64,000 nucleotides of DNA from a virus: the IMG/VR virus record IMGVR_UViG_3300027777_000001, positions 1 through 64,000 of that record; one strand, 5' to 3'. Shown in pieces: positions 13,901 through 57,967 of this stretch. The translations under genes and the position numbers were made by a program. Within the stretch, counting starts at the first letter, position 1. Every line of letters begins with the position of its first letter. Below the pieces are notes generated by a model. The model worked only from the letters and a program-made list of their open reading frames with translations. It did no database searches and was not told the DNA's origin.

Positions 13901-16900
13901 CTAAGGCTCTACCAAGCACCAACCCATCAACCGCAGGAAATACACATGCTAATTCAGATCGATTAGCCCATCTCAGCAGATTCGCTGCAATGGGTCTTGC
14001 CCATGAAGGGGTTAATAAGCTCCTGCAGGGCATGACAGGATCTGGGCTGACTACCACGGCTACCCCTGCACCAACGAGCTTTCTAGCCCGTCTGAAGGCC
14101 TTGTTTGATCAGATCTTGGCTTGGTTCAGTGACAAGCAGACTGGAATCAAACCGGGTGACAAACCTGATGCCAGGTTAGAGAAATTAGTTGATACCTTGG
14201 TTGGGATTGAAGCTAAGAAACGTGCTGCAGCCATGGCTCGACAAAATGCTCTGTTCACAGGTCTACAGAATGTGTCCAATAATGTTCTTAACGCGGCTAA
14301 CACGGGTATCAATAAAGTAGGGGCAGCCGCCGCAAGAAGCAACAATGGGGCAGTGAAAGGCGTAGGGTTTGTGATTAACGCGGTCTCTGGAGGTAGGGTT
14401 AACCAGATCATTAATAATGGCATGAACTACTACGCTACATTGAATGGTGGTAAGCCAGACCTCTTCACAGATACTGTGGCTTATGTGCGTGGGCCAACGT
14501 CTCAGATGGAGGAGTTGTTCCGTATGGGTAAGAAGCTAGAAGCGGATCGTCGAGCATTCATCGACAACACAGCTACGCTTCTCTTGGCTGCATATCGTAA
14601 TGGTGGGCAGGATCTGACACAGATCCAGAAGAAAGCCATTACTTCCTTGGTACGTTCTGATGCCCAGTCACTCTTAGCAGCAGGCTACACCATGGCTCAG
14701 TTAGCTGAGTTCTTGGGCAACGGGACACAACGCCAAGACGAGATTACGAAGCTTGAAGATAGTCTGAAATCCTTACATCCCCAGTTCTATAAACAGTTCT
14801 TGGGTCAATCCAAGCAACTTGCATTCATCTTGGCTAATGGAAAAGCCACGCATGAGAACTCTATGCTGAACGCTTTGAATATTGCACGGATGTACAACAC
14901 ACCCACAATGGGTCAGTTAACCGTAGCAGAAGAGGCTGCAGTCCAAGCCTTGGTAGATCCCTTGGTGTCTCTCTGGGCGATTGAGTATTCACCCACAGTG
15001 CTTCGTGAGACATCCAGAGATGTGTTGCTCGATGAGTCAGCACGCTCCAATGGTGAGAACGGGATTGCCGCAACCCTTGCCATGCACGCACACTTACTCA
15101 AAGATTCAAAAGATAAGCTCTTTGATGGCAGCGAGGTATTGCGTACCAAGGGCTATTTACCAGAGGTATATAACCCAAGAACAGACATCCAAGTAGCAGG
15201 TGATGTCGAGGGTCGGAACTTAATTGACAAGGGCTACTCAGTGGGGGGTGTTTTGCCCAAAGATCCTAATGACCCCGATCCTCAGACCGTAAAAAAATTG
15301 TATGTACGTGAGGACTCAGGGATGGTGGCTCATGTTACAGGGATGATTTCCTTGAAAGACATGAAAGCTAAAGGCTCTGCTCAGATTGGAAAAGAACGTA
15401 GGTTCTATAAACCTAAGGGAGATTGGAATGCCAGTGAAGTCGTAAGAGTCACTGGATCTCAAAGAAACGCCATTGCTTGGATGGCTCAAAATGGCGATAC
15501 ATTTGATCCACGAAACGTCACTGGGACGTTCATGATTCCTACACTAACAAGCGAAGGGGATATTTCTAACTATCGCTATGAAATGAGCCATGCCCGTAAG
15601 GATTCAATCCTCGAGCGAAACAATAACTTTGAACACGTACTTGGGGTATTTGCTGGCAACACATTCGATAAGATTACCTCTGCCCAACATAACGCTAAGG
15701 TTATTCAAGCCTTGCATGACCACTACTCAGTGGACTATGCAGGACGGTCTGTGTCATACGTAGAAGTAGGCCCTAATAGCCGAGACCCAGCCATGCGGGA
15801 AGTCTACCGCTTGCTTCCTGAGGCCACAAAGAAGGAGATAAGAAGAGTGTGGGGAACGGAAGCCATGCTGGTTAGAAACGACATGATGAATCTGACATTT
15901 GGGTATAGGAAATTTAGCCTGTCCGAGATGTTTGATAAAGACCCTTCTACAAGGAATGCTTATGAAGATCTGTTTGTCTCGATTGCTACCTTTGTCGTAG
16001 CAGGGTACGCTAGACTGCAACTTGGAATGGATCCAGCCCAAGCCATGCAGTATGCCAAGCGTACAGGGGTGATTGTTAAACGAGCCGAGGATGCGTGGAA
16101 GACCATCTCTGATGAAACCAAGAATGCGATTGTGGTTAAGACTGGAATCGTGATGATGGGTAATGTCTGGAGTAATGCCACGCTCTTAATGATGCACGAT
16201 ATCTCATTGGTGGATATTGCTAAGCACCATAAGACAGCATTTACCGCAGCCCGAGAGTATCAAGAGGTGAGCGAGGAGTTGTTTAAAGCTCAGACTCAAT
16301 TGGATACTAACTACAACGTGGGTAATAGGAAAGCTTTAGAACAACGGATCTTAGTCCTAAAAGACAAGATCGCCCGTAACCCAGTGACCGAACTTATGGA
16401 CTCTGGCTTGATGCCTACCATCGTGCAAGACGTTAACATTAAGGATGACACATACGCTTATGACTCTAACTTTGTGAAGAACATTAAGGCTAATGTTGCT
16501 TCCCTTAATCCAACAGTCTTAAACATCGGTAAGCAGCTCTACATGACTAAGGACACGCCACACTACAAGATGTTGGCTAACCTGACCCAGATGAGTGACT
16601 TCGTGGCTCGATACACTTTGTATCAACACTTGACCACAAAGAGCCAAGACCCCTTGAGCAAGAAAGAAGCTGCACGGGTATCTTCTGAATCCTTTGTGAA
16701 CTACGACATCCCGCTGCCTAAAGGTATCCAGTATCTAGATGACATCGGGATCTTGCCATTTACCAAGTACTTCTTATCGATGCAAAGAGTGTTGGCTTCC
16801 TTGGTTCGAGAACATCCCGTAAAGGTGCTGATGACCTTGATGGGCAATAACTATTTAAACTTAATGCCAACAGTGATGGATGGGTCAGCGTTTAGTCGCT

Positions 16901-16995
16901 TTGGGAATAACCCGTTTAGGTCAGGGCCATTACGATTCATTGGTGCGGTAGAACACATCCTACCCATCAAGTATGCGATGGGGTTATTCAGGTAA
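4960..16995 (+). CDS. Virion-encapsidated RNA polymerase (N4 gp50-like vRNAP)
   Basis: 4011 aa; single-subunit RNAP motifs ERDGKTNGP (A), RNMMKKPTQEVVYGS (B), NQHDAL (C); no Cys found on reading, as in N4 vRNAP. Confidence 0.95.
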   Translation: MATFDIDQYLADQHNASLEASKLAANIPKPVEPVNTVPEFPDNSIFGSSPTNIKDKLAEVYRASKQKVEQLATDIGNIKLAQNPETVTLTDQFKASLAGVQKDLNGSLTAPLDPDPQKNTLAYKNWVANGSPGFEYDPESTAAQFNNGVARVDSGIARSIGNIKAGLLAPGLVLADNATTEQEKAAYNRRAAGFEYGDGQRANPGDDALLNAPSSVNLSAITGVGDNPNYQLGTSGGSLKERATQIVPERKATILELLDHSRATSKQIDDIATSHDLGSLVDHAAEDRVTAAQKDWVPQNLKMRDSFSINRKSAASNFAEGNFKEALINAESALADGASVTGHYAANTVRDLFNHPDIIEAAVQDNSPQLALGLIPVVGATALGVLNAGYGAQMYAKGEQKYTKETGIPFAPQGERNVQAVASGAAAAAEFVGDLIPVGGITKAGQAISGLGKDAAAVAAKVSAEQAAKTAAEAGFVNRVKAGTLDTAKAMAGEFTTETFQSPLENIANREAYDPYGQALSSVMGAAGGAGMNGPSSVVTQLGKAAQAVQDKKAVAEQAKAAQQKEAIDFYQAAEKNDASIYTDPTSKTYDPVKAAGVWFTHSQQATTTPETKAENLAKVTDLQAQMQADIESVKGSVESSQPKAQAALLDQQAKLQASLSIATPAQTEQINQALGELQQKIDQPVLDTRGLKDAGLRATKMEKQLEQITAMRTRLDLEAGAQGSQDGINAQRASTEVPVAPVASTTNNQDGKSSYDPSGYMDTKEWQAIDAQHSPVEAQWIAMESGPESQAFYEKNVKDLTAQKDAIRDAWQKNDPANASVNQTVNQSANQSPLPASAKDIPLNPASRIGDLLDLDNQDHEGVFDAIKILAMVRKGHRRGMTADQLKNDTFIRTSLAGLTLRAKTDKTAQQGLDYFNKKFDDIVSQSDESAASNAIAKDLLGNTVPLKDLLQHIINENKDPELTKIAKQILKVAGDVPVSTQSERTEVGGLYDIINQTIEITESYLNNGGVADPDTAEIVLHEGGHAATIYALVKNPALRKQLYDLMEHVAKTNPEMLQEYGLTDTAEFLAEGFANPKFRAKLKEIAPSGINRGKFANAWAEFVEFIRKALGLPVSTRSALTELMELGNQAMRETGKAKNKKITIREFNDATAEEIAPIQQVVDPLIAIKNNVSDSNIKDLIDEAIKKASRQTVVAVAVVEALEKLRIISETAPETITLDSFDKAVDSMVFKLSSPRKEGQGNSTEADTQTTEKTLEEQNASVPEAPTNKDSKKETNKESNAGGLDVLNQPVSPKGTAYNLRNVITDYFTQNAGKDTNGTQRPLVKVRDFLTSLLAEPTLAEQFVKGKELSERQQEAVAFFAKTAMAWLPTIQEALFKRADPTYYADNDPLQFLYTEVLDANGKPTGKFDADENYKTAIAYAAFSTIQDMAGNGELNSQATINKMLGRLADHEVTPEEWRALGRIGTLEDLLANAAGQVAYEALGLQVKNMETWNNLPAQIKTSMGAHVMKLLIEQGYIERHLLDATDISAMRGYSSTGGSDTTTNYTGLENLSYFTLAREGQPTDLQRPLTGELQQIVDSVKGTQGILDKVFSIESATRWPSLEPLEPHQVNAKNSDQLVPDTLGTIIDKKLKEVNKLRQDVWHVLGGFTRDFTLEMMGKEDSTQAQKGRRLSVEAKNQSLEREFDQYRELGTILLTTGTKDLGQPYFLDYSVWKQHRVGIATNGFNPNSSKAQRQQSYQPDWETKIDRNDSAQMDNFYLGVAEGFGIATDNVPNAVSLVTIKDRFAQADVVEAVEILRQRMVSVDPEPFTDAEQQKIVSLVKKGKENLHSLNSLIALAHFSEAVKTNSDTFTVQIPAERDGKTNGPMLANAFFGVGSSPAELFKTLNRGGFFEVGNPDTQFNIWKGKGNLDLYEKGTGNLLRTLQWLITEKKVFGFIKDTVQVFTKSLTDPKTGGVNSVGRNMMKKPTQEVVYGSSSKTTVDNMAQVFIESVYARIEEVAKDDLSHMTLAKLIKELNSLLYGTDTKFNSNDTAQTILDKDFSSADIAAMKDKFIKTLGKAVKETVKSDFHAFTFRTQIFTATAGLTFSIYKAVYDTARKDYIKELTELGEFDVNPAFERRGKNGKMSQISARQTHDLNAAQEKVLKERVLAVYPIVHSLFSKESNQLEAGLFISKTERKLSKDPNYQVEVQFGTQIKDLGRSRVNMAAMQTNQVGPGVAMLPNLIQASDSYISHSVQAAMNALNQHDALITGLGKTKETAQLLNAATWKLLLNYSPATEMYEAFVRNILGMESMLAKKEVSKDVLALFAASIVEQTYRFNGPDTDVPIDPHEFLGIHLALMKNMSFRADSMKFSTLGLTASIDQYTFEGGNFAVDEKLREAALAKKAELVSEIDPETQAAVDSLEQRLQTAITAATIAANKKIAQTLNIELDPEGYGVTEQQLEDLRTESREDASINDTVADHLTNAQAFALLSHAVKDKSLGETVVEMLKEVMTKLRESKGAMNLVTALKVLQPANRAEIAQLLMDRASKIPANLWGIQGTPDIKSEAHWVDFFEKRGNVKGEQLVRALKDRLIEQGGPSNVKDFNLEMLNRISKLISPTLTIRYVTPFTAPSQVIQQAKDNARAWYIATTDGVDTIYILSTDFKHSGLTTETLLHEILHSAVARTIKSEQDARKRNPTRKTPLLAIIDDLELLRYLAKKHIDADPELAAKYGPAVSSIDELIAWGMTNTAFQQEVLNKMQGVPSRTNNNAITGLKAMINALVAILFKKTEGREAEILGSGLSILITNVSDLFTEAENKQSQTINETLNRSQTHTAPDPAFYTTAEIYDSLAGVSPAPLAFDSQLRDLLSGIVNKLHGTAGVLHESLMDRQALSAQDVYLKALATGQAPFASATIASGFQFSQQEGFVIEQVEATVRAAIDRNENTQSFAYKGLDALYNEAKANLAPKDFHQGDWNTATQVEKDTAQELYDFLFVMAKALPSTNPSTAGNTHANSDRLAHLSRFAAMGLAHEGVNKLLQGMTGSGLTTTATPAPTSFLARLKALFDQILAWFSDKQTGIKPGDKPDARLEKLVDTLVGIEAKKRAAAMARQNALFTGLQNVSNNVLNAANTGINKVGAAAARSNNGAVKGVGFVINAVSGGRVNQIINNGMNYYATLNGGKPDLFTDTVAYVRGPTSQMEELFRMGKKLEADRRAFIDNTATLLLAAYRNGGQDLTQIQKKAITSLVRSDAQSLLAAGYTMAQLAEFLGNGTQRQDEITKLEDSLKSLHPQFYKQFLGQSKQLAFILANGKATHENSMLNALNIARMYNTPTMGQLTVAEEAAVQALVDPLVSLWAIEYSPTVLRETSRDVLLDESARSNGENGIAATLAMHAHLLKDSKDKLFDGSEVLRTKGYLPEVYNPRTDIQVAGDVEGRNLIDKGYSVGGVLPKDPNDPDPQTVKKLYVREDSGMVAHVTGMISLKDMKAKGSAQIGKERRFYKPKGDWNASEVVRVTGSQRNAIAWMAQNGDTFDPRNVTGTFMIPTLTSEGDISNYRYEMSHARKDSILERNNNFEHVLGVFAGNTFDKITSAQHNAKVIQALHDHYSVDYAGRSVSYVEVGPNSRDPAMREVYRLLPEATKKEIRRVWGTEAMLVRNDMMNLTFGYRKFSLSEMFDKDPSTRNAYEDLFVSIATFVVAGYARLQLGMDPAQAMQYAKRTGVIVKRAEDAWKTISDETKNAIVVKTGIVMMGNVWSNATLLMMHDISLVDIAKHHKTAFTAAREYQEVSEELFKAQTQLDTNYNVGNRKALEQRILVLKDKIARNPVTELMDSGLMPTIVQDVNIKDDTYAYDSNFVKNIKANVASLNPTVLNIGKQLYMTKDTPHYKMLANLTQMSDFVARYTLYQHLTTKSQDPLSKKEAARVSSESFVNYDIPLPKGIQYLDDIGILPFTKYFLSMQRVLASLVREHPVKVLMTLMGNNYLNLMPTVMDGSAFSRFGNNPFRSGPLRFIGAVEHILPIKYAMGLFR

Positions 16996-18165: not shown

Positions 18166-18451
18166 CAGAGGCTTCTGGTTCCAGCTCAGCCACGAAGGGT
18201 AATTTGCCAAGAATGGCTAACCCCGTGGTGATGCCGATCAAAAATCCTACTCGGACATCTCCCGTTAGTATCACGGGTTGAGACTGAGAATCGAGAGTCG
18301 CCTCTGTATCCTCGGGAATATCCATGAGCTGATTCATCTGTGCTACACGATTACCATGCCACGCTGAGAGCATCGCTACGAACTGATCAAGATCCGCAAT
18401 GCCGATCAACTCAGACTGGGCAATCTTGGTTTCTGGTATAGATTGAGTCAT
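18158..18451 (-). CDS. Hypothetical protein
   Basis: 97-aa ORF with AAGG RBS, overlaps next gene. Confidence 0.6.
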   Translation of the reverse strand: MTQSIPETKIAQSELIGIADLDQFVAMLSAWHGNRVAQMNQLMDIPEDTEATLDSQSQPVILTGDVRVGFLIGITTGLAILGKLPFVAELEPEASDA

Positions 18452-18482
18452 GGGTTTACCTTATTAAAGTGAGGGTGACTGC

Positions 18483-19235
18483 TTAGGCTGCGAAAAGGCT
18501 CTGTGAGGGCTTCTTAGCAATTGGAGTACCTGAGCCCTTCGGAGCATTTGCAACGCCTTGTCCTGAGCCAGGTTGAGCACCCTTGGCACGCTCCTTGGTT
18601 TTGCCAGTCCACTTAGCATCCCAAGTGTTAGCAAATACGGCTTCCGTAGACTTGGCACGGACTTCAGCTACAGTCATGCGATCAGCAGCACGAAAGAACT
18701 TATCGATCTCGTTTTCATCACGGGTCTCACCCGTTGCTTCGTACACACCTGTTTGATCATTCTTACGGGTCTTGTCAACATTCTGTTTAATCAGACCTGT
18801 GACAATCTCTTTACCCAATAGATCCATCAAGACTTCGACCTTGGTAGGGACTTCCGCCTTAGCTTCGTATGAATACACATTGACCACTTTGGTTTCTGTA
18901 TCCATGCCTGAGATCTCTTTACCCACAGCAAGTAGACACAAGCTGTTAGCCAAGTTAAAGCCGGGGAGATAGTGTTTGACACCATCTTTCTCGTAGTAGT
19001 TCTTGCCACCCTTGGCGGTGCCTGAGCTCATCCACAAGGTTTGACGCACTTCCTTGTTGTTCTGATCTTTCAGAGACAACACTAAGCCCATCGCACCACC
19101 TGCTGACTTATTCAAATAAGCCATGGCTACGGTATGGTTATAAAGACCCGATTCAACTGGGCCACCACTACCACCGACGGAGTCTTTCTCTTCGCCAATG
19201 GTTTCGTCTGAGGTCAGATTTGCAAGCATATTCAT
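18483..19235 (-). CDS. ssb: Single-stranded DNA-binding protein, N4 gp45-like
   Basis: 250 aa; NYYEKDG..YLPGF and ENEIDKFF segments, C-terminal SLF; synteny after ATPase. Confidence 0.8.
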   Translation of the reverse strand: MNMLANLTSDETIGEEKDSVGGSGGPVESGLYNHTVAMAYLNKSAGGAMGLVLSLKDQNNKEVRQTLWMSSGTAKGGKNYYEKDGVKHYLPGFNLANSLCLLAVGKEISGMDTETKVVNVYSYEAKAEVPTKVEVLMDLLGKEIVTGLIKQNVDKTRKNDQTGVYEATGETRDENEIDKFFRAADRMTVAEVRAKSTEAVFANTWDAKWTGKTKERAKGAQPGSGQGVANAPKGSGTPIAKKPSQSLFAA

Positions 19236-19284
19236 AGTTTGTATTTCCTGTGATTAATGTTTAAGGTTTTTGGTTAGGGGTTAC

Positions 19285-20013
19285 TTACGCGTAATAGGCG
19301 TGTAAGTGGTTCAAGGCTAATTGCATATTGTTGTCCATGTAGGTCTCTTTAGTATCGAAGAGTCCTAATGGGCCACGTAGCCTTTCGTTGACTGTGTCTT
19401 TGGTGAGCTTGCACTGGAAGACATACTTGAATCCAAGTGCTTGCTCTTCAGGGGTAATGGTCAACATACTCGAGGAGTAGTCTTTCAGAACTTTGAGCTG
19501 CACCTTCTTAGAGGCAATGACGACAGAGAAGTAACTCTCGATACCATTGTTCTTTAAAGAGCCTTTCACAGGAACCTTAGTTTCCATAATCATCTCGCCC
19601 TCATTGAGGGTGTCAGCGGTATGGGCTGTAAAGATCACGTTCTTTGTAGACTTGGCTACGTACTGTTGCATCAGGTTCTTGAAGTATTGGGAGAACTGAC
19701 CCCAAGCCTGCATCGTGTTAGCTGCACCGTTGACGTAGACCGACTCGTACATATCCATGAGAAAGGTCACACTATCGACAATGATTGTGTGGATCTCTGG
19801 CTTACTCTCAGCAGACTCAAATGCTTCATACACCTGCAATGGGTCTGTGATGACGTACTCTTTGAACTTGGATCGGAAGGGAAGCTTCTTACCAGATTCA
19901 CAGTTCAGATACATCACCCCTTCTGGATTGGCTAGATCCATGAAAGAGGCTGACTTACCTGTAGCGGATTTCCCGCACAGTAAAACTAAGTGGTCGTTAA
20001 ATTGAGTTGCCAC
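19285..20013 (-). CDS. P-loop ATPase, N4 gp44-like (Sak4-like)
   Basis: Walker A GKSATGKS, Walker B IIVDS. Confidence 0.8.
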   Translation of the reverse strand: MATQFNDHLVLLCGKSATGKSASFMDLANPEGVMYLNCESGKKLPFRSKFKEYVITDPLQVYEAFESAESKPEIHTIIVDSVTFLMDMYESVYVNGAANTMQAWGQFSQYFKNLMQQYVAKSTKNVIFTAHTADTLNEGEMIMETKVPVKGSLKNNGIESYFSVVIASKKVQLKVLKDYSSSMLTITPEEQALGFKYVFQCKLTKDTVNERLRGPLGLFDTKETYMDNNMQLALNHLHAYYA

Positions 20014-20052
20014 TAATGGACTCCTTTATAAAAGTGTTTGTATGCCACGCAC

Positions 20053-22236
20053 CTAGCGCTTGGAAAGCGCCTTCATGGTTGTCATCATGATGGTTCCGAT
20101 GATCTCTGCTTCAGGTAACTTGTCAGGGATCTTGTCGTTCAGTGCCATCACTCGAGTGCGAATCTCTTCATGGTCATAGTTGTCATCGACCAAGATCAAA
20201 GCAAAACGCAGCAACATATTGTTACGATTCCCATCGCCAATGTTGTTGATGACCCAACGCTCCAAGTTATCCATGGATTGCTGAGAGTCGTATTTAGCCT
20301 TGTATTCCTCATTTCTTGAAGTCTTAGGAATGAAGGGCAGGGCATCTAACACTTCACCATCGTTGTACTCATAGCTCCCGTTATGGGCGAGCCACTTGCG
20401 AGAACGCTGGTTGGTGGCAGTGTCTACAGCGAACGGCAACCATTGGTAGATATGCGTCATAAAACTCTTATAGTCCTTAGCATCAAGGGCTAGTTTGTAG
20501 TTAATTGGCATAATGATTCTGAATCGGTTTTCCTGATCCGTGTGACGCTTGGTGGTATGGAGTAAGAATTTGTAATCCTTGAGAGTCTCCTTAGCGGCTT
20601 TTATACTGACGCTTCCTTCTACGTCTAAGACCACCAAGTTAAATCCTGGGATTGCATTCTCTTCATTCCTGTACCCACCCGTTAGATGGTGAGATACCCA
20701 ATGCAAGCCTTGGTGTTGGGTCAACACATGGAGCTGATCAAAGGGTGCGTACTCTGCACAGTAATCAGTAGTGATATCTGTGGAGTAACCCACAACCATC
20801 TTATTAATATCAGTCTCTTTGAGAGTCTCGCCACGAAAGAACTCGATTCCATCAGAGATTGTTTTCTTGATGATGATGTTGTTCCGGTAGCCATGAGAAA
20901 TAGCTAAGGACATCATCTCAGCTCTAGCAGGGGCTGTCCCTTTATAGAAGGGCAAGTCTTCCACTAAATCTGCTTGGGTTGCATCACAACGAATGTTGGC
21001 TAAATGCTTAGCCAGTTTCATATGATTACGATCCCGAGTGAGCATCTTGTTAAAGGCTTCACCAGATTCTTCAGCCAACTTGATTGCGTTATGGATATGG
21101 TCTGGTGTGACCGAAGGAGATTCATCTACAAAGGCATAGGCTCCTGCAAGCTTTAAGACTTTGAAATAGCGATGATAAAGTTCATGGGCATGAGACTCTT
21201 GGTTGTCGCTGTACTCTGCAGATTCCCGTTCACATTTTTGCTTGTATTCAATCAACAAGATACTAGTCTCTCTCGAGATAGTCAGGTTGCGATACATATG
21301 GATTGGATCAGCAAGGTTTTCAAATATCTCAGAAATTTGATCAATGAGTGCATCATTCGCTGGGCTAGTTTGACGATCGTAGACTTCCTCAGGCGTGAGT
21401 TGATTTTGTGAATCAATACGTGGCGAGGAGCCAAAGAAACACCGTCTTGCATAGCCTGTATCTAATAGTGAGACAAAGCCTTCCTCAGTCTTACCACCAT
21501 CAAACAATCGATTAGGTACACCAAACAACAACATATTGGTAGGCGTACGATCTGCGATCTCTTCGTTCCGAGATTTGACTGCTGTTTCTAAGCGCAACCT
21601 TGGATCCATTAAACCAAGGTCATAGAGCTCTAAGAAAGAGGCCATGGCTTCGGTTTCATTAAGAAGGTGCGAACCAATCTCATCAATCTGTAGATTGACT
21701 GAACCCGCTTTAGCCATTAACAAGATGTGACGCATCTGGTCAATACCTGCACCCGTTGCTTTGTTAAAGCTAAATAGAAACTTACCGCAGGCTTTGTATT
21801 CAGCCTGTACTTTCAGAAGGGAATCGTCAAAATCAATTCCATCTCTTGCAGCACGATACAAAGCGAGCTTGTTAAGATTGGCTTCTGCTACTTGGGGTAG
21901 GGTTTTTTCTAAGAAGCGAGTTTTAAACTTACCCAAAATATCATTCTTCATAATATTGCAGGACTTGGTTTTCCCCGTACCTGAGGGGCCAAGAGCTAAG
22001 GCAAACATACTGACGGGAAGATCTCCATTACCTTTGGTGGCAATGTTGATTCGCATCTGTGCTGCTGCCATACAGAAGAAATACCCAACAATGACTCGAA
22101 AGAATAATCGGTTTGGATTATCCGTCTTGTCGCATAGCAAGGTAACTAACTTCTCAGCCATGGGATGAAAGGTCATCTGATCAGGCGGCAGTAACATCGG
22201 AATGCGTGGTGCTACAGGTGCAAGGTTAGGTAGCAT
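20053..22236 (-). CDS. DNA primase, N4 gp43-like
   Basis: 727 aa; P-loop GPSGTGKT; C-terminal primase/PriCT-like GNRNNML; synteny. Confidence 0.8.
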   Translation of the reverse strand: MLPNLAPVAPRIPMLLPPDQMTFHPMAEKLVTLLCDKTDNPNRLFFRVIVGYFFCMAAAQMRINIATKGNGDLPVSMFALALGPSGTGKTKSCNIMKNDILGKFKTRFLEKTLPQVAEANLNKLALYRAARDGIDFDDSLLKVQAEYKACGKFLFSFNKATGAGIDQMRHILLMAKAGSVNLQIDEIGSHLLNETEAMASFLELYDLGLMDPRLRLETAVKSRNEEIADRTPTNMLLFGVPNRLFDGGKTEEGFVSLLDTGYARRCFFGSSPRIDSQNQLTPEEVYDRQTSPANDALIDQISEIFENLADPIHMYRNLTISRETSILLIEYKQKCERESAEYSDNQESHAHELYHRYFKVLKLAGAYAFVDESPSVTPDHIHNAIKLAEESGEAFNKMLTRDRNHMKLAKHLANIRCDATQADLVEDLPFYKGTAPARAEMMSLAISHGYRNNIIIKKTISDGIEFFRGETLKETDINKMVVGYSTDITTDYCAEYAPFDQLHVLTQHQGLHWVSHHLTGGYRNEENAIPGFNLVVLDVEGSVSIKAAKETLKDYKFLLHTTKRHTDQENRFRIIMPINYKLALDAKDYKSFMTHIYQWLPFAVDTATNQRSRKWLAHNGSYEYNDGEVLDALPFIPKTSRNEEYKAKYDSQQSMDNLERWVINNIGDGNRNNMLLRFALILVDDNYDHEEIRTRVMALNDKIPDKLPEAEIIGTIMMTTMKALSKR

Positions 22237-36488: not shown

Positions 36489-36755
36489 ATGAAATTCAAA
36501 ACTCCCCAAATTGTTTTAATTGAGTGGACAGATGCTGCCCATGAATTTGGTTGGATGGAAGGTAACGATGTCAATCCAGTTGATATTGATCTGACTTGTT
36601 TATCTGTAGGTTGGGTCTTGGCTAAGACCCCTAAGTACATTAAGTTATGCCAAACATATTCTGGCGATAACCACGCACAAACAATCGTCATTCCCCGAGC
36701 CATGGTAAAGAACATTACCTCAATGAAAAAAGAGGGAGTTCACCATGTTAAGTAA
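36489..36755 (+). CDS. Hypothetical protein
   Basis: 88 aa; IEW.DA, SVGW, IP..MV pattern. Confidence 0.6.
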   Translation: MKFKTPQIVLIEWTDAAHEFGWMEGNDVNPVDIDLTCLSVGWVLAKTPKYIKLCQTYSGDNHAQTIVIPRAMVKNITSMKKEGVHHVK

Positions 36756-37701
36756 GACTATGAAGTTACCCGTCAGTGATGAGATCTTCCTTGAAGCTTG
36801 GCAACGTCTGGGTAGCTCAGATCTTGTAGCGACTGAGCTAGGGGTAGGAAGACGCTCTGTTCAACGTAGAAAGAAAACCATGGAAGCTATTTATCCAGAG
36901 GCTCCTCGGGTTCAGACCCCTACTGTTCCTCACTTCTATCGTCGTGAGCATAATGCTCGAACAGACTGCACGTTAGAGAATGGAATCATTATTGTAGGAA
37001 GTGATGTTCATAAATGGCCGGGCCCGAATACAGTGGCTCAACAGGCATTCATAAACGTCATTGCTGAGTTACGTCCCCAGATGGTTGTCATCAATGGTGA
37101 TCTCTTTGATGGAGCTGGTGTATCACGCTGGCCTAAGTCTTCATTCGGACACAAGCTTCCAACGGTCAAAGAAGAGCTTGATGCAGTCCACAAGTATCTC
37201 TCTGAGATCGAAGCTGTAGCTCGGGGAGCTAAGCGTTGGTGGACGATAGGCAACCATGATATGCGGTTTGAATCCAGACTGGCTAACTTGGTGCCTGAGT
37301 TTGAGGGAGTCCCTGGATTCTCTTTACAAGAACAGTTCCCTCTCTGGCCTATGTCTATGTCGATGATGGTCAACGACAACGTGATGATCAAGCATCGCTT
37401 CAGGAACGGTCTTCATGCCACCTATAACAACACCTTGGTTTCAGGTAAGAACATCGTCACGGGGCATTTACACCGTCTCCAAGCCACGGTCTTTACGGAC
37501 TATGACGGAAGTAGGTGGGGTATCGATACAGGCACTCTAGGGGACACAGATGGCCCTCAGATGAGCTATGGCGAAGATAATCCTGCCAATCATTGTTCTG
37601 GTTTCGCAGTATTAACAATCGTGAATGGCAAGTTGATCCACCCTGAGTTCTGTGCAGTCCAAGGTGATCGGGCATTCTTCAGGGGCAAGGATGTGACATG
37701 A
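36745..37701 (+). CDS. Calcineurin-like metallophosphoesterase with N-terminal HTH-like segment
   Basis: SDVH, NGDLFD, GNHD, GHLH motifs. Confidence 0.85.
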   Translation: MLSKTMKLPVSDEIFLEAWQRLGSSDLVATELGVGRRSVQRRKKTMEAIYPEAPRVQTPTVPHFYRREHNARTDCTLENGIIIVGSDVHKWPGPNTVAQQAFINVIAELRPQMVVINGDLFDGAGVSRWPKSSFGHKLPTVKEELDAVHKYLSEIEAVARGAKRWWTIGNHDMRFESRLANLVPEFEGVPGFSLQEQFPLWPMSMSMMVNDNVMIKHRFRNGLHATYNNTLVSGKNIVTGHLHRLQATVFTDYDGSRWGIDTGTLGDTDGPQMSYGEDNPANHCSGFAVLTIVNGKLIHPEFCAVQGDRAFFRGKDVT

Positions 37702-38528: not shown

Positions 38529-39018
38529 GATTTTTATCATTGGCTGTGGGATTGCCTTTGTTTCCGGCACAACCCTATCTTGGTGGCTGACTGCCGACTA
38601 CAAGAATGCCAAGTTTGCAGAGACGATCTCCACCATTCGACTAGACGCTGCAGAAGCTGTACGTCTAGCAACGAATAAGGCTCGATCTATTGATGCAGAA
38701 AACTCCCGTATCGCAACCGAATTAGAGGTGGCTCATAATGAATTTAGACAGAATCTTGATACCGTTAAAGCTGACAATGCTCGTCTTGTTAGTGAGCTTG
38801 GGGGCTTGTACGACAGTCACGCCGCCGCAAGTAATAGCAACGTGCCCAGTTCCACCACCCCCTCCAGCAGCGCTCCTGTCGCCCCCACCACAGGCAAACT
38901 TTCAAGAGAACTTACGCAGCTACTTCTTTCCGAATCAGCAAGGGCAGACGAAGCTGCAGCCTACGCCCGTACCTGCTACGACTTTTTCCAAGTAAGGAAG
39001 AACAATGTACCTAACTAA
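38515..39018 (+). CDS. Rz: i-spanin
   Basis: N-terminal TM segment, coiled coil, terminal Cys; contains an embedded lipoprotein ORF. Confidence 0.75.
   Translation: MFDIKIFIIGCGIAFVSGTTLSWWLTADYKNAKFAETISTIRLDAAEAVRLATNKARSIDAENSRIATELEVAHNEFRQNLDTVKADNARLVSELGGLYDSHAAASNSNVPSSTTPSSSAPVAPTTGKLSRELTQLLLSESARADEAAAYARTCYDFFQVRKNNVPN
38738..38995 (+). CDS. Rz1: o-spanin lipoprotein embedded in Rz
   Basis: Lipobox LGAC, Pro-rich body, GAGG RBS, alternative frame inside Rz. Confidence 0.75.
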   Translation: MNLDRILIPLKLTMLVLLVSLGACTTVTPPQVIATCPVPPPPPAALLSPPPQANFQENLRSYFFPNQQGQTKLQPTPVPATTFSK

Positions 39019-39622
39019 AGAAATGTTAGTAGCAGCAGATCTATGTAGCACAGCCAATGCAGCCTTGTATGAAGCTCCACTCAATAACGTGTGTACTCGT
39101 TATGAGATCAATACTCCGTTAAGAATGGCAGGGTTCTTGTCTCAAATTGCACATGAATCTGGAGGCTTTACAGCTACGGTAGAAAACCTCTATTACCAAG
39201 CCTCAGCATTGAACCGGAGCTGGCCTCAGTTATTCCCTGGGGATGTGGCTCAACAGTACGCCATGCAGCCTGAGAGGATTGCAAATAGAGCTTACGGGAA
39301 CCGTATGGGTAACGGAGACGAAGCCAGTGGGGAGGGGTGGTTGTACAGAGGTCGGGGTCTTATTCAGCTGACTGGCAAAAATCAGTATCTCAATTTTGCT
39401 ATGTCTGAGGATGTAGATACCTTGGTTCATCCTGAACTAGTCGAGCTTCCAGAGTTGGCTGCAATGTCTGCAGGATGGTTCTGGCACACCAATGACTTGA
39501 ATACTCTGGCTGATTTGGGCTATGTAGAAGCCATGACCAGACGTATTAATGGAGGATTGAATGGGCTGGCTGATCGCCAAGCTAAGTACAACGCAGTCTT
39601 AAAAGTCTTAGCTTGGGAGTAG
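39005..39622 (+). CDS. Endolysin, glycoside hydrolase family 19
   Basis: FLSQIAHESG, ENL.Y, YRGRGLIQLTG, TRRINGG. Confidence 0.92.
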   Translation: MYLTKEMLVAADLCSTANAALYEAPLNNVCTRYEINTPLRMAGFLSQIAHESGGFTATVENLYYQASALNRSWPQLFPGDVAQQYAMQPERIANRAYGNRMGNGDEASGEGWLYRGRGLIQLTGKNQYLNFAMSEDVDTLVHPELVELPELAAMSAGWFWHTNDLNTLADLGYVEAMTRRINGGLNGLADRQAKYNAVLKVLAWE

Positions 39623-39626
39623 AACC

Positions 39627-39908
39627 ATGAAGATCTTGTTTGGATTACTGGTATTGCTTGGTTTAAATGTCTCAGCAGAGACGCTAGATAAGCCCGTACG
39701 GTGTGCATCCCTTGAGACCGTACAAGAGAAGATGAAAGAGTTTGGTGAGAGCGTACTCTGGACATCCCCAAGTGTCCTTGAGGAGTCTGATTACGCTTTC
39801 TACGGTAACCGTGAGACAGGCTCATGGTCACTGGTTCAGATCATTCATGGGATCGGTTGCTTGGTAGCTTTCGGTGAAGCAGGTAAGCAAGTCCGAGCAG
39901 GATCTTGA
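39627..39908 (+). CDS. Secreted hypothetical protein
   Basis: Signal-peptide-like N-terminus, two Cys. Confidence 0.55.
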   Translation: MKILFGLLVLLGLNVSAETLDKPVRCASLETVQEKMKEFGESVLWTSPSVLEESDYAFYGNRETGSWSLVQIIHGIGCLVAFGEAGKQVRAGS

Positions 39909-39913
39909 TTAGT

Positions 39914-39952
39914 CTGTGTGAATTGCGTGTGAATCCTGTGTGAATTCACACA
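39914..39952. repeat. Integrase arm-type repeats, left side of attP
   Basis: Three tandem 11-mers CTGTGTGAATT / GCGTGTGAATC / CTGTGTGAATT plus an inverted copy. Confidence 0.75.
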
Positions 39953-39979
39953 CCGCTTGGTACCGTTTAGTGGGGGTAG

Positions 39980-40019
39980 AAAAGAAAAACCGCTGTGCCT
40001 TCAAGGGGCTACAGCGGTT
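39980..40019 (-). terminator. Intrinsic terminator downstream of the tmRNA-like core
   Basis: Minus strand AACCGCTGT...ACAGCGGTT stem followed by TTTCTTTT. Confidence 0.75.
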
Positions 40020-40034
40020 AAAAGCGGTTTGTAA

Positions 40035-40060
40035 TGGTGGAGCCGGGGGGAATTGAACCC
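40035..40060 (-). other. attP core, a copy of the tmRNA (ssrA) 3' end
   Basis: Minus strand GGGTTCAATTCCCCCCGGCTCCACCA: T-arm, Ala-type acceptor strand and CCA; no 5' half present; lies 86 bp past the integrase stop. Confidence 0.8.
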
Positions 40061-40108
40061 TGCGGTGATTTACCTGTTTATGCGGGTCTCGAGCCAGTAA
40101 AACCTAAT

Positions 40109-40130
40109 CTGTGTGAATTCTGTGTGAATT
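40109..40130. repeat. Integrase arm-type repeats, right side of attP
   Basis: Two tandem CTGTGTGAATT copies. Confidence 0.75.
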
Positions 40131-40146
40131 CATTTTGAGAAGGGTT

Positions 40147-41364
40147 TTACGCCTCATTTCCATAGGCACTAGGCAAGGATTTCTGAAAGTTCTTGGGTAT
40201 CCATTTGCCATATCTCTTGAACACCATCTCGGCATCCACATGACCCATCTGCTGAGCCAACCAGAAAGGGTTAGCACCATTGGTCAGTAAAGTCGATGCG
40301 TAAGTATGCCTGATTTGGTAGAGGTTACGGTAGCGGATCTTAGAGCGTTCAAACAAAGGTTCCCAAAAGGTACGAACGATCTGCTGTTCTCGAGCCCATG
40401 GTTGACCGGATCGAGGGTTCATCCAGACTCTGCCATTGTCCTCATGCTCAAGCTCTTGTTGCTGAGCCAGTGCCTCAATCGCTGAGACATTCAGATCAAT
40501 CTCGCGGGCTCCTGAAGAGGTCTTAGGAGCTTTCTCAAACTGTCCCACCACATCCCCACGCCTGCCTGTGACCTCGTTGGTCGAGATCCTGACAAGCTTC
40601 TTATCCATGTCGATTGACTCCCAACGCAGAGCAATAAACTCTCCTGGTCGCAATCCTGTGGCAAACCAGAACTGAAGGGTAGAGCGTTCGTCTGACCGAC
40701 AAGCTTTAAGTAAAGCTGCAACCTCTTCATGGTCAAAGGGTTCAATGGCTCCACGTTTGGACTTGGTGCTGGTCTGGCTAAGTAGCTTCTTGAGTGCAAC
40801 ATTATCCAATGGATTGGATTCAATCAAGTCATCGTTCAGAGCATCCTCTAGTGCTGATCGAAGTGGGGTAAGCCTGTTCCTTACGGTCTTGGCAGTTACC
40901 CCAAGCCCAGCAATCCATGTTCTTAATACAGGTGCTGTCAGTTCGTTGATCGGTAGCTTGTCAAAAGCAGGGATCAAGATCGAGTTAATGATCTTGTAAT
41001 AGCCCTGATATGACGAAGGTGACAACGTATCGTTCTCAGTCTGCTTGTCATAGATCCCAAGCTGAGCCCTAAGTAAATCACCAATGGTTCGTTTGTGGAT
41101 AACCTTGACTACACCCTTAGTGACCTTGGGTGAGTCAGGGAAATACTTAGCGTATTCAAACGTACCATCAGCAATCTTTCGACGGATTTCACTTCTCAAA
41201 CTAGCTGCATAATCAATGTTTGTTTTATTGATCTTGCAGACTGGTAATAACTCACGACATTGCTGACTCTCGAAACTGAACGCAATCTGAATGCGTTGAA
41301 TCTCTCGGTCAGTCCTTATTGCTATGCCAACTGGCGTTTCAGGGGAACCTGACTCTCGACCCAT
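40147..41364 (-). CDS. int: Tyrosine integrase with N-terminal arm-binding domain
   Basis: TGLRPGE, APKT, YQIRHT, QMGH, KRYGKWI catalytic pattern; YAKYFP.S arm-domain motif. Confidence 0.93.
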   Translation of the reverse strand: MGRESGSPETPVGIAIRTDREIQRIQIAFSFESQQCRELLPVCKINKTNIDYAASLRSEIRRKIADGTFEYAKYFPDSPKVTKGVVKVIHKRTIGDLLRAQLGIYDKQTENDTLSPSSYQGYYKIINSILIPAFDKLPINELTAPVLRTWIAGLGVTAKTVRNRLTPLRSALEDALNDDLIESNPLDNVALKKLLSQTSTKSKRGAIEPFDHEEVAALLKACRSDERSTLQFWFATGLRPGEFIALRWESIDMDKKLVRISTNEVTGRRGDVVGQFEKAPKTSSGAREIDLNVSAIEALAQQQELEHEDNGRVWMNPRSGQPWAREQQIVRTFWEPLFERSKIRYRNLYQIRHTYASTLLTNGANPFWLAQQMGHVDAEMVFKRYGKWIPKNFQKSLPSAYGNEA

Positions 41365-41525
41365 TTCTCAACCTCGGTGGGATTAATCCAAATGCTACCT
41401 TCGCGTTTGACCCACTGTACTCCTTCTGTCCATTTACGGTTTCTACGCCTTGCTCGGACAGCCTCGGAGGTATCTCCTGAGAGATCACAATACTTATTGA
41501 TCTTGACCCATTTCATTGCAAGCAT
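41322..41525 (-). CDS. xis: Excisionase
   Basis: Small basic protein (KWV...YC..SG, W.EG..W, IWIN...VEKW) overlapping the int start. Confidence 0.8.
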   Translation of the reverse strand: MLAMKWVKINKYCDLSGDTSEAVRARRRNRKWTEGVQWVKREGSIWINPTEVEKWVESQVPLKRQLA

Positions 41526-43994: not shown

Positions 43995-44233
43995 TTCGTC
44001 ACCTCGTCTAGTGCGTAGAGTGGAATGCAATACTCAACATCTTTATCGGTAGTGCAATCCATAATTTGATCGTTTAAACCTTTAAACCCGTAGCCCACAG
44101 GCTTTAACTCCCGCAACTCACGGGCTGCGGTGAGGGCAACATCGTGGCGTAATTTTGTCAGCCCCAAAACGCCTGTGTCGTTTGTGTGATGTGCTGATTC
44201 AAACGCATTGATAATTAAATCAAGTTTGTTCAT
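43991..44233 (-). CDS. Hypothetical protein
   Basis: 80 aa; KPV..IPLY module. Confidence 0.55.
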   Translation of the reverse strand: MNKLDLIINAFESAHHTNDTGVLGLTKLRHDVALTAARELRELKPVGYGFKGLNDQIMDCTTDKDVEYCIPLYALDEVTK

Positions 44234-44394: not shown

Positions 44395-44796
44395 TTACTC
44401 CAAAATTGTTTGTGCGATTAGATCTTTGTAACCAGACCAAGCAGGGTGAATACCATCAGGTTGCATGAGCTTGGTACCGATAATCTTGTCACCATAGAAA
44501 GCAGCAAGCACCATGACCATCTCTTGAATCTCTGGCTTGATGTTAGGCATGATCCAATAGACATGGTTTGATTGCACACGCTCACGGATAGCAACTAACT
44601 CAGCGTAGGTCTCAACCCCTTTATGGTCATTGGTTCCTAAGCTGATAATCACCACACCTGCTGTGAGTACGTTATTTGCGTACAGATGATTGAACTGTGA
44701 AGTGTTGATTCCAGTCTGCCCAACCAGTTGACATTGACGGGCTACCATCTGAGTACCCACAGCAATGCTGTCACCTAGGATTAAGCATTCAATCAT
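44395..44796 (-). CDS. SGNH/GDSL hydrolase
   Basis: GDSI, G, GTND and DGIHP blocks. Confidence 0.85.
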   Translation of the reverse strand: MIECLILGDSIAVGTQMVARQCQLVGQTGINTSQFNHLYANNVLTAGVVIISLGTNDHKGVETYAELVAIRERVQSNHVYWIMPNIKPEIQEMVMVLAAFYGDKIIGTKLMQPDGIHPAWSGYKDLIAQTILE

Positions 44797-54891: not shown

Positions 54892-55057
54892 CTTGGACTC
54901 GAAGTAGGGTGTTGTGATAGGTGTACAGAATCGCTGCCATGTCATTGGGCTTGGCGATAGGAAGCATGGATTGAGCAAGGTCGATCACATCTTGCAACTT
55001 ATCGAGAGTCGGATAGACTCCCATGGCATGAGGGACTGGATTAGTGCTGTGTTTCAA
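54839..55057 (-). CDS. Small hypothetical protein
   Basis: TTG start after GGAG; YPT..LPI..TYHNTLL. Confidence 0.5.
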   Translation of the reverse strand: MKHSTNPVPHAMGVYPTLDKLQDVIDLAQSMLPIAKPNDMAAILYTYHNTLLRVQDENNHSPESDSLPTKGL

Positions 55058-55472
55058 GATGGATCTGCTCCGGTGTTGATTCAGCAGGCAAGCCTTCTTG
55101 AACACGTTGAGCTTTGATCTGCTCGATGATCTTGGCAATCCCACTGGAATAGAACAAGCCAGCCAATTGACCTGAGGTGCAACTGTTTAGATACTCTTGG
55201 ACATTTGCAGGGGTTAAGGCAGGCGTTGAGAGGGCTCTGGCAAGGCCTTCTGGCTCCAAGCTGTATTCATCCACGATAGCCATGAAAGACCGGATACGGT
55301 CTGTTATACGGTTCACAGGAGGTGGTGAGATTCCAGCCTCTACGAGCACACGGTTGACAGTCCGTTTAGAGGTCTTAAACTTTTCTGCGAGCTCGGTTTG
55401 GTTGAATATATCAGCCCGAAACCAGTCGGCAAGGAGTTGCTTTTCAGCAAGGGAAATACACTTTACGGTCAT
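55041..55472 (-). CDS. HTH DNA-binding protein
   Basis: NQTELAEKFKTSKRTVNRVL helix-turn-helix. Confidence 0.7.
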   Translation of the reverse strand: MTVKCISLAEKQLLADWFRADIFNQTELAEKFKTSKRTVNRVLVEAGISPPPVNRITDRIRSFMAIVDEYSLEPEGLARALSTPALTPANVQEYLNSCTSGQLAGLFYSSGIAKIIEQIKAQRVQEGLPAESTPEQIHLETQH

Positions 55473-55663: not shown

Positions 55664-57738
55664 TTATGACAAGGCATAGTTCCCTAGCCTGATGTGTACG
55701 CCTAGGTCTTTACTCTTCTTCATCCACTTTCCCTTGTAGCCAGTGATCTGGGTAAGAACATCGGACAAGATCTCACTCTCGGCTAGATCAGCCATCACGT
55801 AGATGTACTGTTGACGAAGATGGTTCAGGTTATTAGGGTGACACTTGAACTCATCATGGATCGTCACTAGAGGGAAGGGTGCATACATCTGCATCTGGTC
55901 GATGAGAGTAGACAACTTCTCTAAGTGTGCTGTGGATAACTGATCCACAGTCTTGGTTGTTAGATGAGGCAGGATCACCACATCAGCTAACTTGCTACGG
56001 TTGAACTGCTCGATGTAATACATTGTTTTACCTGACAAGGCAGGTGAGCTGAAGTTTGGATACATTCTTCGGACATCTAATGTGTCCTTGATTAGAGCCT
56101 GAGCATTGCTGACAACTACTGGATCGTAGTTACAACGCCTGTGCATAGCCCGTAATACGTAACCATCGATGCTATGTATACAATTCGCCGCCAGTGATAA
56201 TCCCTTCTTAGTCCCTACATTGTCATAGTAGGTATAGGTGAAGGTGGCATGATCTAACTCATCAACCTCGATGCGTGCATCGATCTTGTCCATGACTTTG
56301 ACCTTGGCATCATACCCATCGGGTAATTGCCAAGCGTGCTCCAAAGCCCATGGTTGCCATGATGCAAGCAGGTCTTGGAGAAGCTCCCAAGGCCCGGGTG
56401 CCACGATCTGAGCTGCCTGATAGAAGGCATCCAGTTCAGGACTATCCTCGCCAAATATGGCTTTGGGAGTCTTTTTACTACCGTAGAAAGCAATGTGTTC
56501 AGGATAGTTCGTTAAGCTATCCCCGCTTTATTCAAGCTGCTATGTATTCCTACATAGATCAGACTATATCTTCACCCATCACTGGGGTTCTGCGCTTCCA
56601 CCCACTTGGGTGTACTCCCTTACGGGATAGTCGTTGCACCTTTTACAACAGCTTTACACATCTGGATAAATAGTTCTTCATCCAAATCGCCTTTTGCTCT
56701 ATTAACAGCCCATGCTACCCATTGAACATTACCCTGTGTGTACCCTAATTTAGGTTGCAGTTTGTCAATTGACAATCCAGCAGGGTGTTCTTTTTCAACG
56801 AATAGTGATTGGTTGGTGTATTTACACTTCCCATTTTGCTGTTTCCAGAGGTCAAGCATATATTCCATAGTGATATTAAATGGGCGTTCGTTTCGTTTGT
56901 TGTTGGTTTTTGCTGAAGATATCCTCTGGCAAATAGCAGAAACTAACTTACGTTCGTCCCCTTTATATGGTGCAAATCGGCCTGTGCCATCGTAGCCTTT
57001 ATGTTTAGCTCGCCATTCTCTAGCTTCTTTTGCTAGACACACACGACATTCTGGTTTGAAATCAGCAATGACGTTGGCGTTGAATTGTGAGCTGTTTTTA
57101 CTTTTGGCGGGGCCGTATGCATTTAAAGGTTTAATTTCATTACAGATCCGACAGGTTTTCATCGTATTCCTATAGGTAAAGTCATAGAAGTATTTTACGA
57201 TTATTTCTACGGAATAGCTATCATAACTTGGCTCAGGATTGTCCTTATTTTTCAATAGTGGGATGTTCCCTGAGTTCACAGAATTGCGTATTTCTAGTTG
57301 CCTAGAAAGTGACCCCTTTTATTCTAAGGTCATTAGACACTTCTTGGCATCTGCTCGAGGGATTGTGATGTTGCTCCCCAAGATGGCATTCATCGTATCT
57401 GTGGTCAGGGTGTATGCGTCTGCTCGGACATTGGGGTTCGTTAAGCCCGTAGACGCAGCACCCGCAGGGCATCCTGTGATAGCAGCCATGATCTGAATGC
57501 CTGAACATACAGCATCAAATCCAACCAAGTGTCCAGAGGGTTCCCCCCTCTGTGCTGCTCGGATAGCTTGGCAAGCCTTCATGTACAAAGGCTTCTTATC
57601 AGCCTGATCTACTAGGCTCTCTAAGATATCCAAGTTAGCCTCGGCCCATGTAATACGTTCCTCGAATAGAAGTTTGTCGATACCGAATTGGTTTGCGACA
57701 TCAATGAGTAAGTACTGCCAGCCTGTGAAGGTTTGCAT
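55664..57738 (-). CDS. RNA polymerase II large subunit (N4 gp16-like), two exons: 57738-57327 and 56490-55664
   Basis: Exon 1 has FDAVCSGIQ (motif A); the join gives RADAKKCLMTSFYGS (motif B); exon 2 has IHSIDG and IHDEF (motif C); 412+827 nt = 413 codons in frame. Confidence 0.9.
56491..57326 (-). mobile_element. Group I intron (836 nt) in the RNAP II gene
   Basis: P1 UGACCU/GGGUCA with U.G at the 5' splice site; P GAACUCAGGGAA, Q AAUCCUGAGCCAAG, R GCAACGACUA, S AAGAUAUAGUC; terminal G. Confidence 0.9.
56620..57162 (-). CDS. Intron-encoded homing endonuclease (HNH/His-Me-finger-like)
   Basis: CRIC..CRVC N-terminus; SIDK..P.LGY..GNVQW....N.AK; lies between Q and R elements. Confidence 0.8.
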   Translation of the reverse strand: MKTCRICNEIKPLNAYGPAKSKNSSQFNANVIADFKPECRVCLAKEAREWRAKHKGYDGTGRFAPYKGDERKLVSAICQRISSAKTNNKRNERPFNITMEYMLDLWKQQNGKCKYTNQSLFVEKEHPAGLSIDKLQPKLGYTQGNVQWVAWAVNRAKGDLDEELFIQMCKAVVKGATTIP

Positions 57739-57748
57739 GATTAGACCT

Positions 57749-57967
57749 TTATGGGAATAGAATTGCCATGGCACGGATGTGCTTGGGTATGTTGTCGTGA
57801 TTGGGTATCCACTGCCAATCGTATCCGCCGATACCTTTATCCATACAGAGGTACCAATTTTCTCCAAATTTCTTATATGTTCCTAAAATCCGTTCGGTAC
57901 CCCAATCATCCCCATTGGGGAAGACTAGAACCTCACCGTTGGGACTGAAGTGATACTTTGATTTCAT
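57749..57967 (-). CDS. Hypothetical protein between RNAP II subunit genes
   Basis: ATGA-coupled 72-aa ORF. Confidence 0.55.
   Translation of the reverse strand: MKSKYHFSPNGEVLVFPNGDDWGTERILGTYKKFGENWYLCMDKGIGGYDWQWIPNHDNIPKHIRAMAILFP

Follow-up and report, generated by a model that had tools for sequence, protein, structure and literature searches.

We analysed bases 1-64000 (the window) of IMGVR_UViG_3300027777_000001, a 74,079-bp IMG/VR virus record with an N4-like phage backbone, and focus here on a compact module in which an excisionase gene (xis) and a tyrosine integrase gene (int) adjoin a phage attachment site (attP) whose core copies the 3' end of ssrA, the bacterial transfer-messenger RNA (tmRNA) gene. 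The module comprises the following features:

39914-40130, minus strand (the direction of ssrA and int): attP, 217 bp, made up of far arm, terminator, core and near arm
39914-39952, no strand: int-distal arm, with three direct 11-bp repeats (39914-24, 39925-35, 39936-46) and an inverted copy (39944-39952)
39978-40019, minus strand: predicted replacement terminator of ssrA after integration, formed by a 12-bp hairpin and the U-run UUUUUCUUUU (folding)
40035-40060, minus strand: 26-nt core, GGGTTCAATTCCCCCCGGCTCCACCA, corresponding to the T-loop, 3' T-stem, 3' acceptor strand and CCA of tmRNA
40109-40130, no strand: int-proximal arm, two direct 11-bp arm-type repeats
40147-41364, minus strand: tyrosine integrase with N-terminal arm-binding domain, 405 aa (Pfam and PHROG)
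41322-41525, minus strand: excisionase (recombination directionality factor), 67 aa, overlapping the start of int (PHROG)

The integrase, Int, features Arm-DNA-bind_2 (PF12167, 5e-20) and Phage_integrase (1.5e-17) Pfam domains and is assigned to the integrases by PHROG, while alignment with nine relatives reveals that residues R239, K281, R352, H375 and Y385 are invariant. The first histidine of the HxxR motif is a tyrosine (Y349) in all aligned members of the family, including integrases encoded beside the same core in non-N4 contigs, and this substitution is therefore a family trait rather than a defect. Alignment to the best solved relative, the Tn1549 integrase (E 3e-10), agrees with the same catalytic set. 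Xis, in turn, matches three PHROG excisionase families (2e-9 to 1e-7), together with a weak Pfam match (DUF1233) that falls under its cut-off. The locus is therefore a lambda-type (heterobivalent tyrosine integrase) integration/excision module.

The core GGGTTCAATTCCCCCCGGCTCCACCA is single-copy in the genome and is flanked by three direct and one inverted copies of the arm repeat on its far side and by two on the int side. An exact 9-mer, TGTGTGAAT, is found five times, always inside 39915-40129 and nowhere else in the 64 kb, and the sixth copy carries one mismatch. Because both arms flank a single core beside int, the site is an unrecombined attP. The terminator hairpin, 3' of the CCA, is predicted from folding (centroid -18.6 kcal/mol, z -2.4), and a promoter/terminator consensus scan gave no calls in the attP region, the hairpin included. 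Rfam reports just a 13-nt partial tmRNA match and ARAGORN calls no tRNA or tmRNA gene in the window; we accordingly rejected a tmRNA gene at the Rfam match, which represents a fragment only. A DNA similarity search of the phage isolate collection returned no match to the module DNA. The 11 nucleotides just 3' of the CCA (40024-40034, TTACAAACCGC) are identical in five attP or left-junction (attL) variants with otherwise differing terminators. An earlier note on this DNA had described xis-int with intact catalytic residues, a core in the form of an ssrA 3' end, a replacement terminator after the CCA and 11-bp repeats on both sides of an unrecombined attP, and the module bears out this description, including the 2+3 direct repeats and the one core beside int.

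The identity of the target gene emerges from the distribution of the core in bacteria. The core is found exactly in at least 120 bacterial loci and, among the matches listed, 102 of 120 coincide precisely with the 3' terminus of a tmRNA called by ARAGORN, another 15 are truncated at a locus edge and none lies within a tRNA. The integration target is thus the 3' end of the host ssrA. Extra core copies outside any tmRNA call are present in three loci (L029:1893-1918, L041:5293-5318 and L142:3371-3396) and probably mark the distal boundaries of islands residing at ssrA.

Natural recombination products of such modules can be observed directly. In L162, a 103-kb metagenome contig, the 150 nt that come after a full tmRNA share 92% identity with window 39911-40060, and ARAGORN calls an intact tmRNA across this attL, with the tag ANDERFALAA and with the terminator and three-repeat arm downstream. 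A second attL lies in L163, a 1.1-kb metagenome contig that contains 56 nt of the same host ssrA, the core, the far arm, a small open reading frame (ORF) and an endolysin, and is 89.6% identical to window 39141-40060 over 923 nt. The right junction (attR) is found in G792:C40, a contig of a bacterial metagenome-assembled genome (MAG) from the same GTDB genus, which begins inside int (C-terminal 74 aa, 99% identical; 85% at the nucleotide level); the two-repeat arm and a left flank of phage type come next, then the core, and after it the ssrA terminator native to the host. Finally, an empty bacterial site (attB) is present in L117, an Alcaligenaceae MAG that shares 95% identity with L162 in the host flank and has its native terminator after the same CCA. 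Both attL and attR of such modules therefore exist in nature in one freshwater Alcaligenaceae genus, and the L162 attL directly reveals a tmRNA gene restored by integration and ending in a terminator that the phage supplies. Junctions of this kind, which the earlier note had suggested looking for, thus bear out its proposal that the host tmRNA is restored on integration.

The flanks are swapped between the two junctions, with host left and phage right in attL and phage left and host right in attR, a reversal that places strand exchange inside the core. The attR host flank in G792 starts with TTAC, so that identity with some hosts may reach 30 nt. A 23-mer representing a lysogen junction of the present phage (ssrA end plus phage flank) is matched exactly by none of 185,579 species genomes, and the G792 MAG has neither further DNA from the 27-46 kb block nor another copy of the core.

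The earlier note had also proposed that the core could identify the host, and this holds at the level of the order: more than 120 species carry it, nearly all of them Burkholderiales (Achromobacter, Bordetella, Castellaniella, Paenalcaligenes, Aquabacterium, Roseateles, Ideonella and Aromatoleum), so the core alone resolves the host to order level only, whereas assignment to a genus needs the attL/attR junctions and GC content. Taken together, these narrow the host to the one freshwater Alcaligenaceae genus, which is represented by 55 species genomes, including a Lake Baikal MAG. The GC content of the phage (45%) is nearer to that of the ssrA loci of this genus (49-53%) than to that of Achromobacter and Bordetella (65-68%).

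The same core is present in 27 viral contigs, 14 of whose loci also encode an Int homologue. In one of these settings, a 44.7-kb IMG/VR contig (3300023055_000010; L017/L020), the ssrA core occurs twice in direct orientation, at contig positions 84-109 and about 44,031-44,056, and encloses an ordinary prophage whose Int (36% identity) lies just inside the second copy; the ssrA site is used by several phage types. Related ints, 54-95% identical and falling into six groups, adjoin the core in other viral contigs, and in every group the site is built in the same way: the core has two repeats on its int side and, beyond the terminator on its other side, three more. The repeat word itself is group-specific:

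ATTCACACAG: this window and L009
ATTCGCACAG: L162
ATTCACACC: L163
AATTCGCACCG: L150
AAATCGACG: L004, L010 and L023
AATAGCACC: L003, L013, L022 and L024

Such covariation of repeat word and integrase is the pattern expected if the repeats are binding sites for the Int N-terminal domain. Comparison with L009, whose Int is 95% identical at the amino acid level, further reveals that int is under strong purifying selection (dS, the synonymous divergence, 0.53; dN/dS 0.066), and that 111 consecutive attP nucleotides (39980-40090) are identical in the two despite this dS. Constraint thus acts on both the gene and the site.

Going by how the lambda-type integrase family works, we propose that the N-terminal domain of Int would bind the 11-bp arm repeats and its catalytic half the core, and that strand exchange would take place within the 26-nt core with the 3' end of the host ssrA, the overlap being most likely the 7-nt T-loop TTCAATT flanked by GGG and CCC. 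In the inserted state the tmRNA would keep its own 5' part and gain an identical, phage-supplied 3' end, with the phage hairpin serving as terminator, and Xis would direct the reverse reaction.

The genome that carries this module is truly N4-like. A 4011-aa ORF (4960-16995) encodes the virion RNA polymerase (vRNAP; phrog_2206, 1526 bits), and both subunits of RNA polymerase II (RNAPII; phrog_2166 and phrog_2051), an N4-type single-stranded DNA-binding protein (SSB), portal and large terminase subunit (TerL) are found in N4-like order, so that, with the DNA polymerase (DNAP), the Schitoviridae hallmarks are all present. The top matches of the DNAP, at 53% identity, are Klebsiella phage Pylas, Salmonella FSL SP-058, Escherichia phage Pollock and further N4-like isolates. 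The ends of the record share an exact 99-nt repeat that lies inside a gene, and therefore represent an assembler overlap on a circularly closed assembly with a unit length of 73,980 bp. G812, a complete N4-like record of 73.5 kb, is collinear with this genome outside one variable block, which lies between DNAP and the other replication genes and spans 19 kb here (27.3-46.4 kb) versus 15 kb in G812. Within this block the tail-fibre and lysis genes occupy one strand and small genes the other, and xis-int-attP sits where the two directions meet, at the convergence point of the late lysis operon and the early/middle operon.

Elsewhere in the backbone, the RNAPII large-subunit homologue is split (window 55664-57867, minus strand), with an ORF at 57319-57867 covering phrog_2051 positions 1-139, a second at 55664-56404 covering positions 168-401, and an HNH/endonuclease VII-like ORF (56620-57279) between the two. 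This arrangement fits an intron or homing-endonuclease insertion.

The combination of an N4-like backbone with a module of this type could also be an artefact, in which the int-attP of a co-occurring temperate phage was threaded into an N4 backbone through near-identical flanking genes during assembly of the 74-kb record. A siphovirus described below does encode genes from both sides of the module (Metallophos and holins, DUF7220 and dGTPase). Such a chimera would nevertheless require two crossovers, GC content is even across the window, and genome length and gene order agree with G812. The exact sequences of Int, endolysin, TerL, RNAPII and SSB are each found on 4 contigs. In clusters at 90% identity, Int, TerL, SSB, Metallophos and the ORF at 44395 each occur on a single 58,550-bp ENA/Logan contig, and Xis, TerL, Metallophos and ORF 44395 on a 72,267-bp one; we infer from the equal lengths that the cluster members sit on the same molecules, so that separate assemblies appear to join Int or Xis with the N4-like proteins. 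With module and backbone apparently together on independent contigs, a chimeric assembly is unlikely, and the specific scenario of a threaded module strikes us as very improbable. Near-identical copies of Int, TerL, SSB and DNAP also appear in clusters P0004-P0006, P0035, P0052 and P0059, from NCBI sources with contigs of 4-15 kb, which suggests pieces of this phage binned into deposited MAGs.

The surroundings of the module are informative as to its origin. The neighbouring genes are:

39005-39622, plus strand: endolysin, GH19-like, the last gene of the lysis cassette, converging on attP
39627-39908, plus strand: small moron-like protein with a hydrophobic, signal-peptide-like N-terminal start, abutting the far arm and also found in the attL contig L163
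41528-41833, minus strand: small protein with a hydrophobic, signal-peptide-like N-terminal start, just upstream of xis; no family match

The endolysin has a 93% identical (amino acid) copy in the attL contig L163 and 57% identical copies beside the same core in non-N4 phage contigs. The two signal-peptide-like ORFs, both lacking a family match, bracket xis-int-attP; morons often occupy such positions in temperate phages.

Homologues of genes on both sides of the module (Metallophos, holins, DUF7220 and a dGTP diphosphohydrolase-like gene) are found together with the same core and a 58% identical Int in the L150/L166 contig. This contig encodes a 1181-aa tape measure protein and is therefore a siphovirus-type temperate phage; on the same grounds we rejected it as an N4-like relative, which leaves the attP comparison unaffected. 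Other same-core Int relatives lie on fragmentary contigs without a vRNAP match, some of which have the 57% endolysin beside attP. Just one of 26 N4-like DNAP neighbourhoods includes an Int of the same family, and G812, the closest complete N4-like relative, is devoid of an integrase; the module is therefore accessory. Its most likely source, to judge from these gene comparisons, is a temperate siphovirus infecting the same hosts, which would have passed on part of the lysis cassette along with it.

At window 36489-37701 lies a two-gene cassette, consisting of a small ORF and a calcineurin-like phosphoesterase (Metallophos), relatives of which, 47-90% identical, occur in several unrelated types of phage, 27 viral contigs in all. 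We rejected Metallophos as an N4 marker, as the cassette is common to unrelated 55-58 kb phages. Two complete examples, G814 (C1:24332-25357) and G816 (C1:12170-13213), share it and carry ORFs of 3000-3700 aa whose matches to the N4 vRNAP profile cover only its N-terminal part (~170-500) and leave out the polymerase; similar weak matches to the vRNAP profile are found in five Burkholderiales genomes.

Does the phage itself integrate? Integration competence, meaning a temperate life cycle or at minimum the capacity to insert, is in our view probable for this N4-like phage. The module was recovered repeatedly, in several independent assemblies of the phage that reach genome length, and an integrated N4-like relative is at hand in L192 (IMG/VR G808, 18288-21093; class 'provirus'; DNAP 61% identical), where 56 bp separate a same-family Int from the complete bacterial gene for an ABC-F ATPase that comes next (NCBIfam PRK15064, 1007 bits), with GC content rising from 0.49 to 0.60. 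L192 represents an N4-like phage inserted at a protein-coding target.

Several observations weigh against this view. None of the junction contigs (L162, L163 and G792:C40) reaches an N4 hallmark gene, and the 5-kb element interior in L162, whose best family match is a Fic-like protein, resembles neither this phage nor any of the viral loci compared with it. Same-core Int relatives reside in conventional phage contigs without a vRNAP match, among them the L150/L166 siphovirus, so that the natural junctions could belong to such phages. The vRNAP was not found in about 860 Burkholderiales genomes (401 at order level, 401 at family level and all 55 of the host genus) in a search whose positive control, G812, was recovered, and many of the genomes searched are MAGs. 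MAGs often lose prophages. Moreover, no member of a backbone-protein cluster lies on a contig longer than 74,079 bp, the backbone-bearing contigs being all phage-length or shorter, and a Pfam scan of ~30 ORFs found no CI/Cro- or helix-turn-helix (HTH)/S24-type repressor, where Pfam absence is not proof, and yielded a weak winged-helix hint at 55041-55472. With the integrase also missing from the nearest complete relative, the same facts can be read to mean that the module is functional but an idle passenger from siphoviruses, transferred together with the lysis cassette, and that the phage, having no immunity, is lytic in practice. The block shared with the tape-measure siphovirus and the endolysin-attP-int adjacency in non-N4 contigs would both be accounted for in this way. 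On the other hand, int is strongly purified and attP invariant between the window and L009, which is probably one of the N4-like 58-72 kb variants, given that it has their 316-aa form of Metallophos; the module is retained in the independent genome-length assemblies; and other N4-like lineages have been found integrated (L192; PMC10654107). We regard the idle-passenger explanation as unlikely, though not negligible.

The earlier note's description of a temperate schitovirus accordingly stands as regards a complete module in a genuine N4-like genome, but not as regards lysogeny itself, for which neither backbone in host chromosomes nor a repressor was found. It is doubtful that the inserted copies behind the observed attL and attR are the N4-like phage itself, with lysogeny kept without a classical repressor. 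Were this so, early hairpin promoters might be readable only by the virion-delivered RNA polymerase, itself a late product, which would leave the inserted copy silent until some host-driven trigger restarted the cascade.

N4-like phages, which have been applied or suggested as agents for therapy and biocontrol, are regarded as strictly lytic, an assumption that each well-documented integration-competent lineage weakens. The natural junctions pin the host to one uncultured freshwater Alcaligenaceae genus, and a lysis-attP-int block taken from a temperate siphovirus of the same host represents a possible route to integration competence. How a polymerase-cascade phage without a visible repressor would stay silent becomes testable once the host is cultured.

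The module shares its architecture with that of phage lambda, where the integrase likewise has an arm-binding N-terminus, attP spans ~220-240 bp with a short core and 2 and 3 arm-type sites, xis precedes and overlaps int, and int adjoins attP. Sequence similarity to lambda is nonetheless distant, and the present system differs in having its core inside an RNA gene rather than in an intergenic region, its two-repeat arm on the int side and a tyrosine in place of the first catalytic histidine in its Int family. Integration at the 3' end of tmRNA genes is well known, and is reportedly documented in the surveys of K. P. Williams. As in proteobacterial ssrA prophages and islands, the attP core copies the ssrA 3' end, insertion restores the gene, and many elements compete for the site, as the 27 viral contigs with the core attest; unlike the other ssrA elements sampled, which lack a vRNAP, the carrier here has an N4-like backbone. 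L192/G808 resembles the window in that N4-like early and replication genes are followed by a same-family Int ~5-6 kb past DNAP, whereas the two integrases are only 28% identical, the L192 target is the start of a protein gene rather than ssrA, and the L192 copy was found inserted and this phage free.

The closest precedent is the survey of Zheng et al. (2023, mSystems 8:e00197-23; PMC10654107), which reported 54 N4-like genomes with lysogeny genes from IMG/VR and GenBank and 40 integrated N4-like proviruses, mostly in Moraxella, and proposed that some N4-like lineages are lysogenic. The novelty implied by the earlier note is thereby lost, as integrase-bearing N4-like uncultivated virus genomes and integrated proviruses were already published in 2023 (PMC10654107). 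That work does not describe att-site anatomy and makes no mention of tmRNA or ssrA (PMC10654107), and our literature search found no account of an ssrA-targeting N4-like attP. The present phage is like the genomes of that survey in its N4-like backbone, its IMG/VR-type data and its phage integrase; what sets it apart, and what it adds, is a fully dissected attP, a new target in the Burkholderiales tmRNA gene, ssrA, the evidence of natural attL, attR and empty attB sites, and an indicated siphovirus origin of the module.

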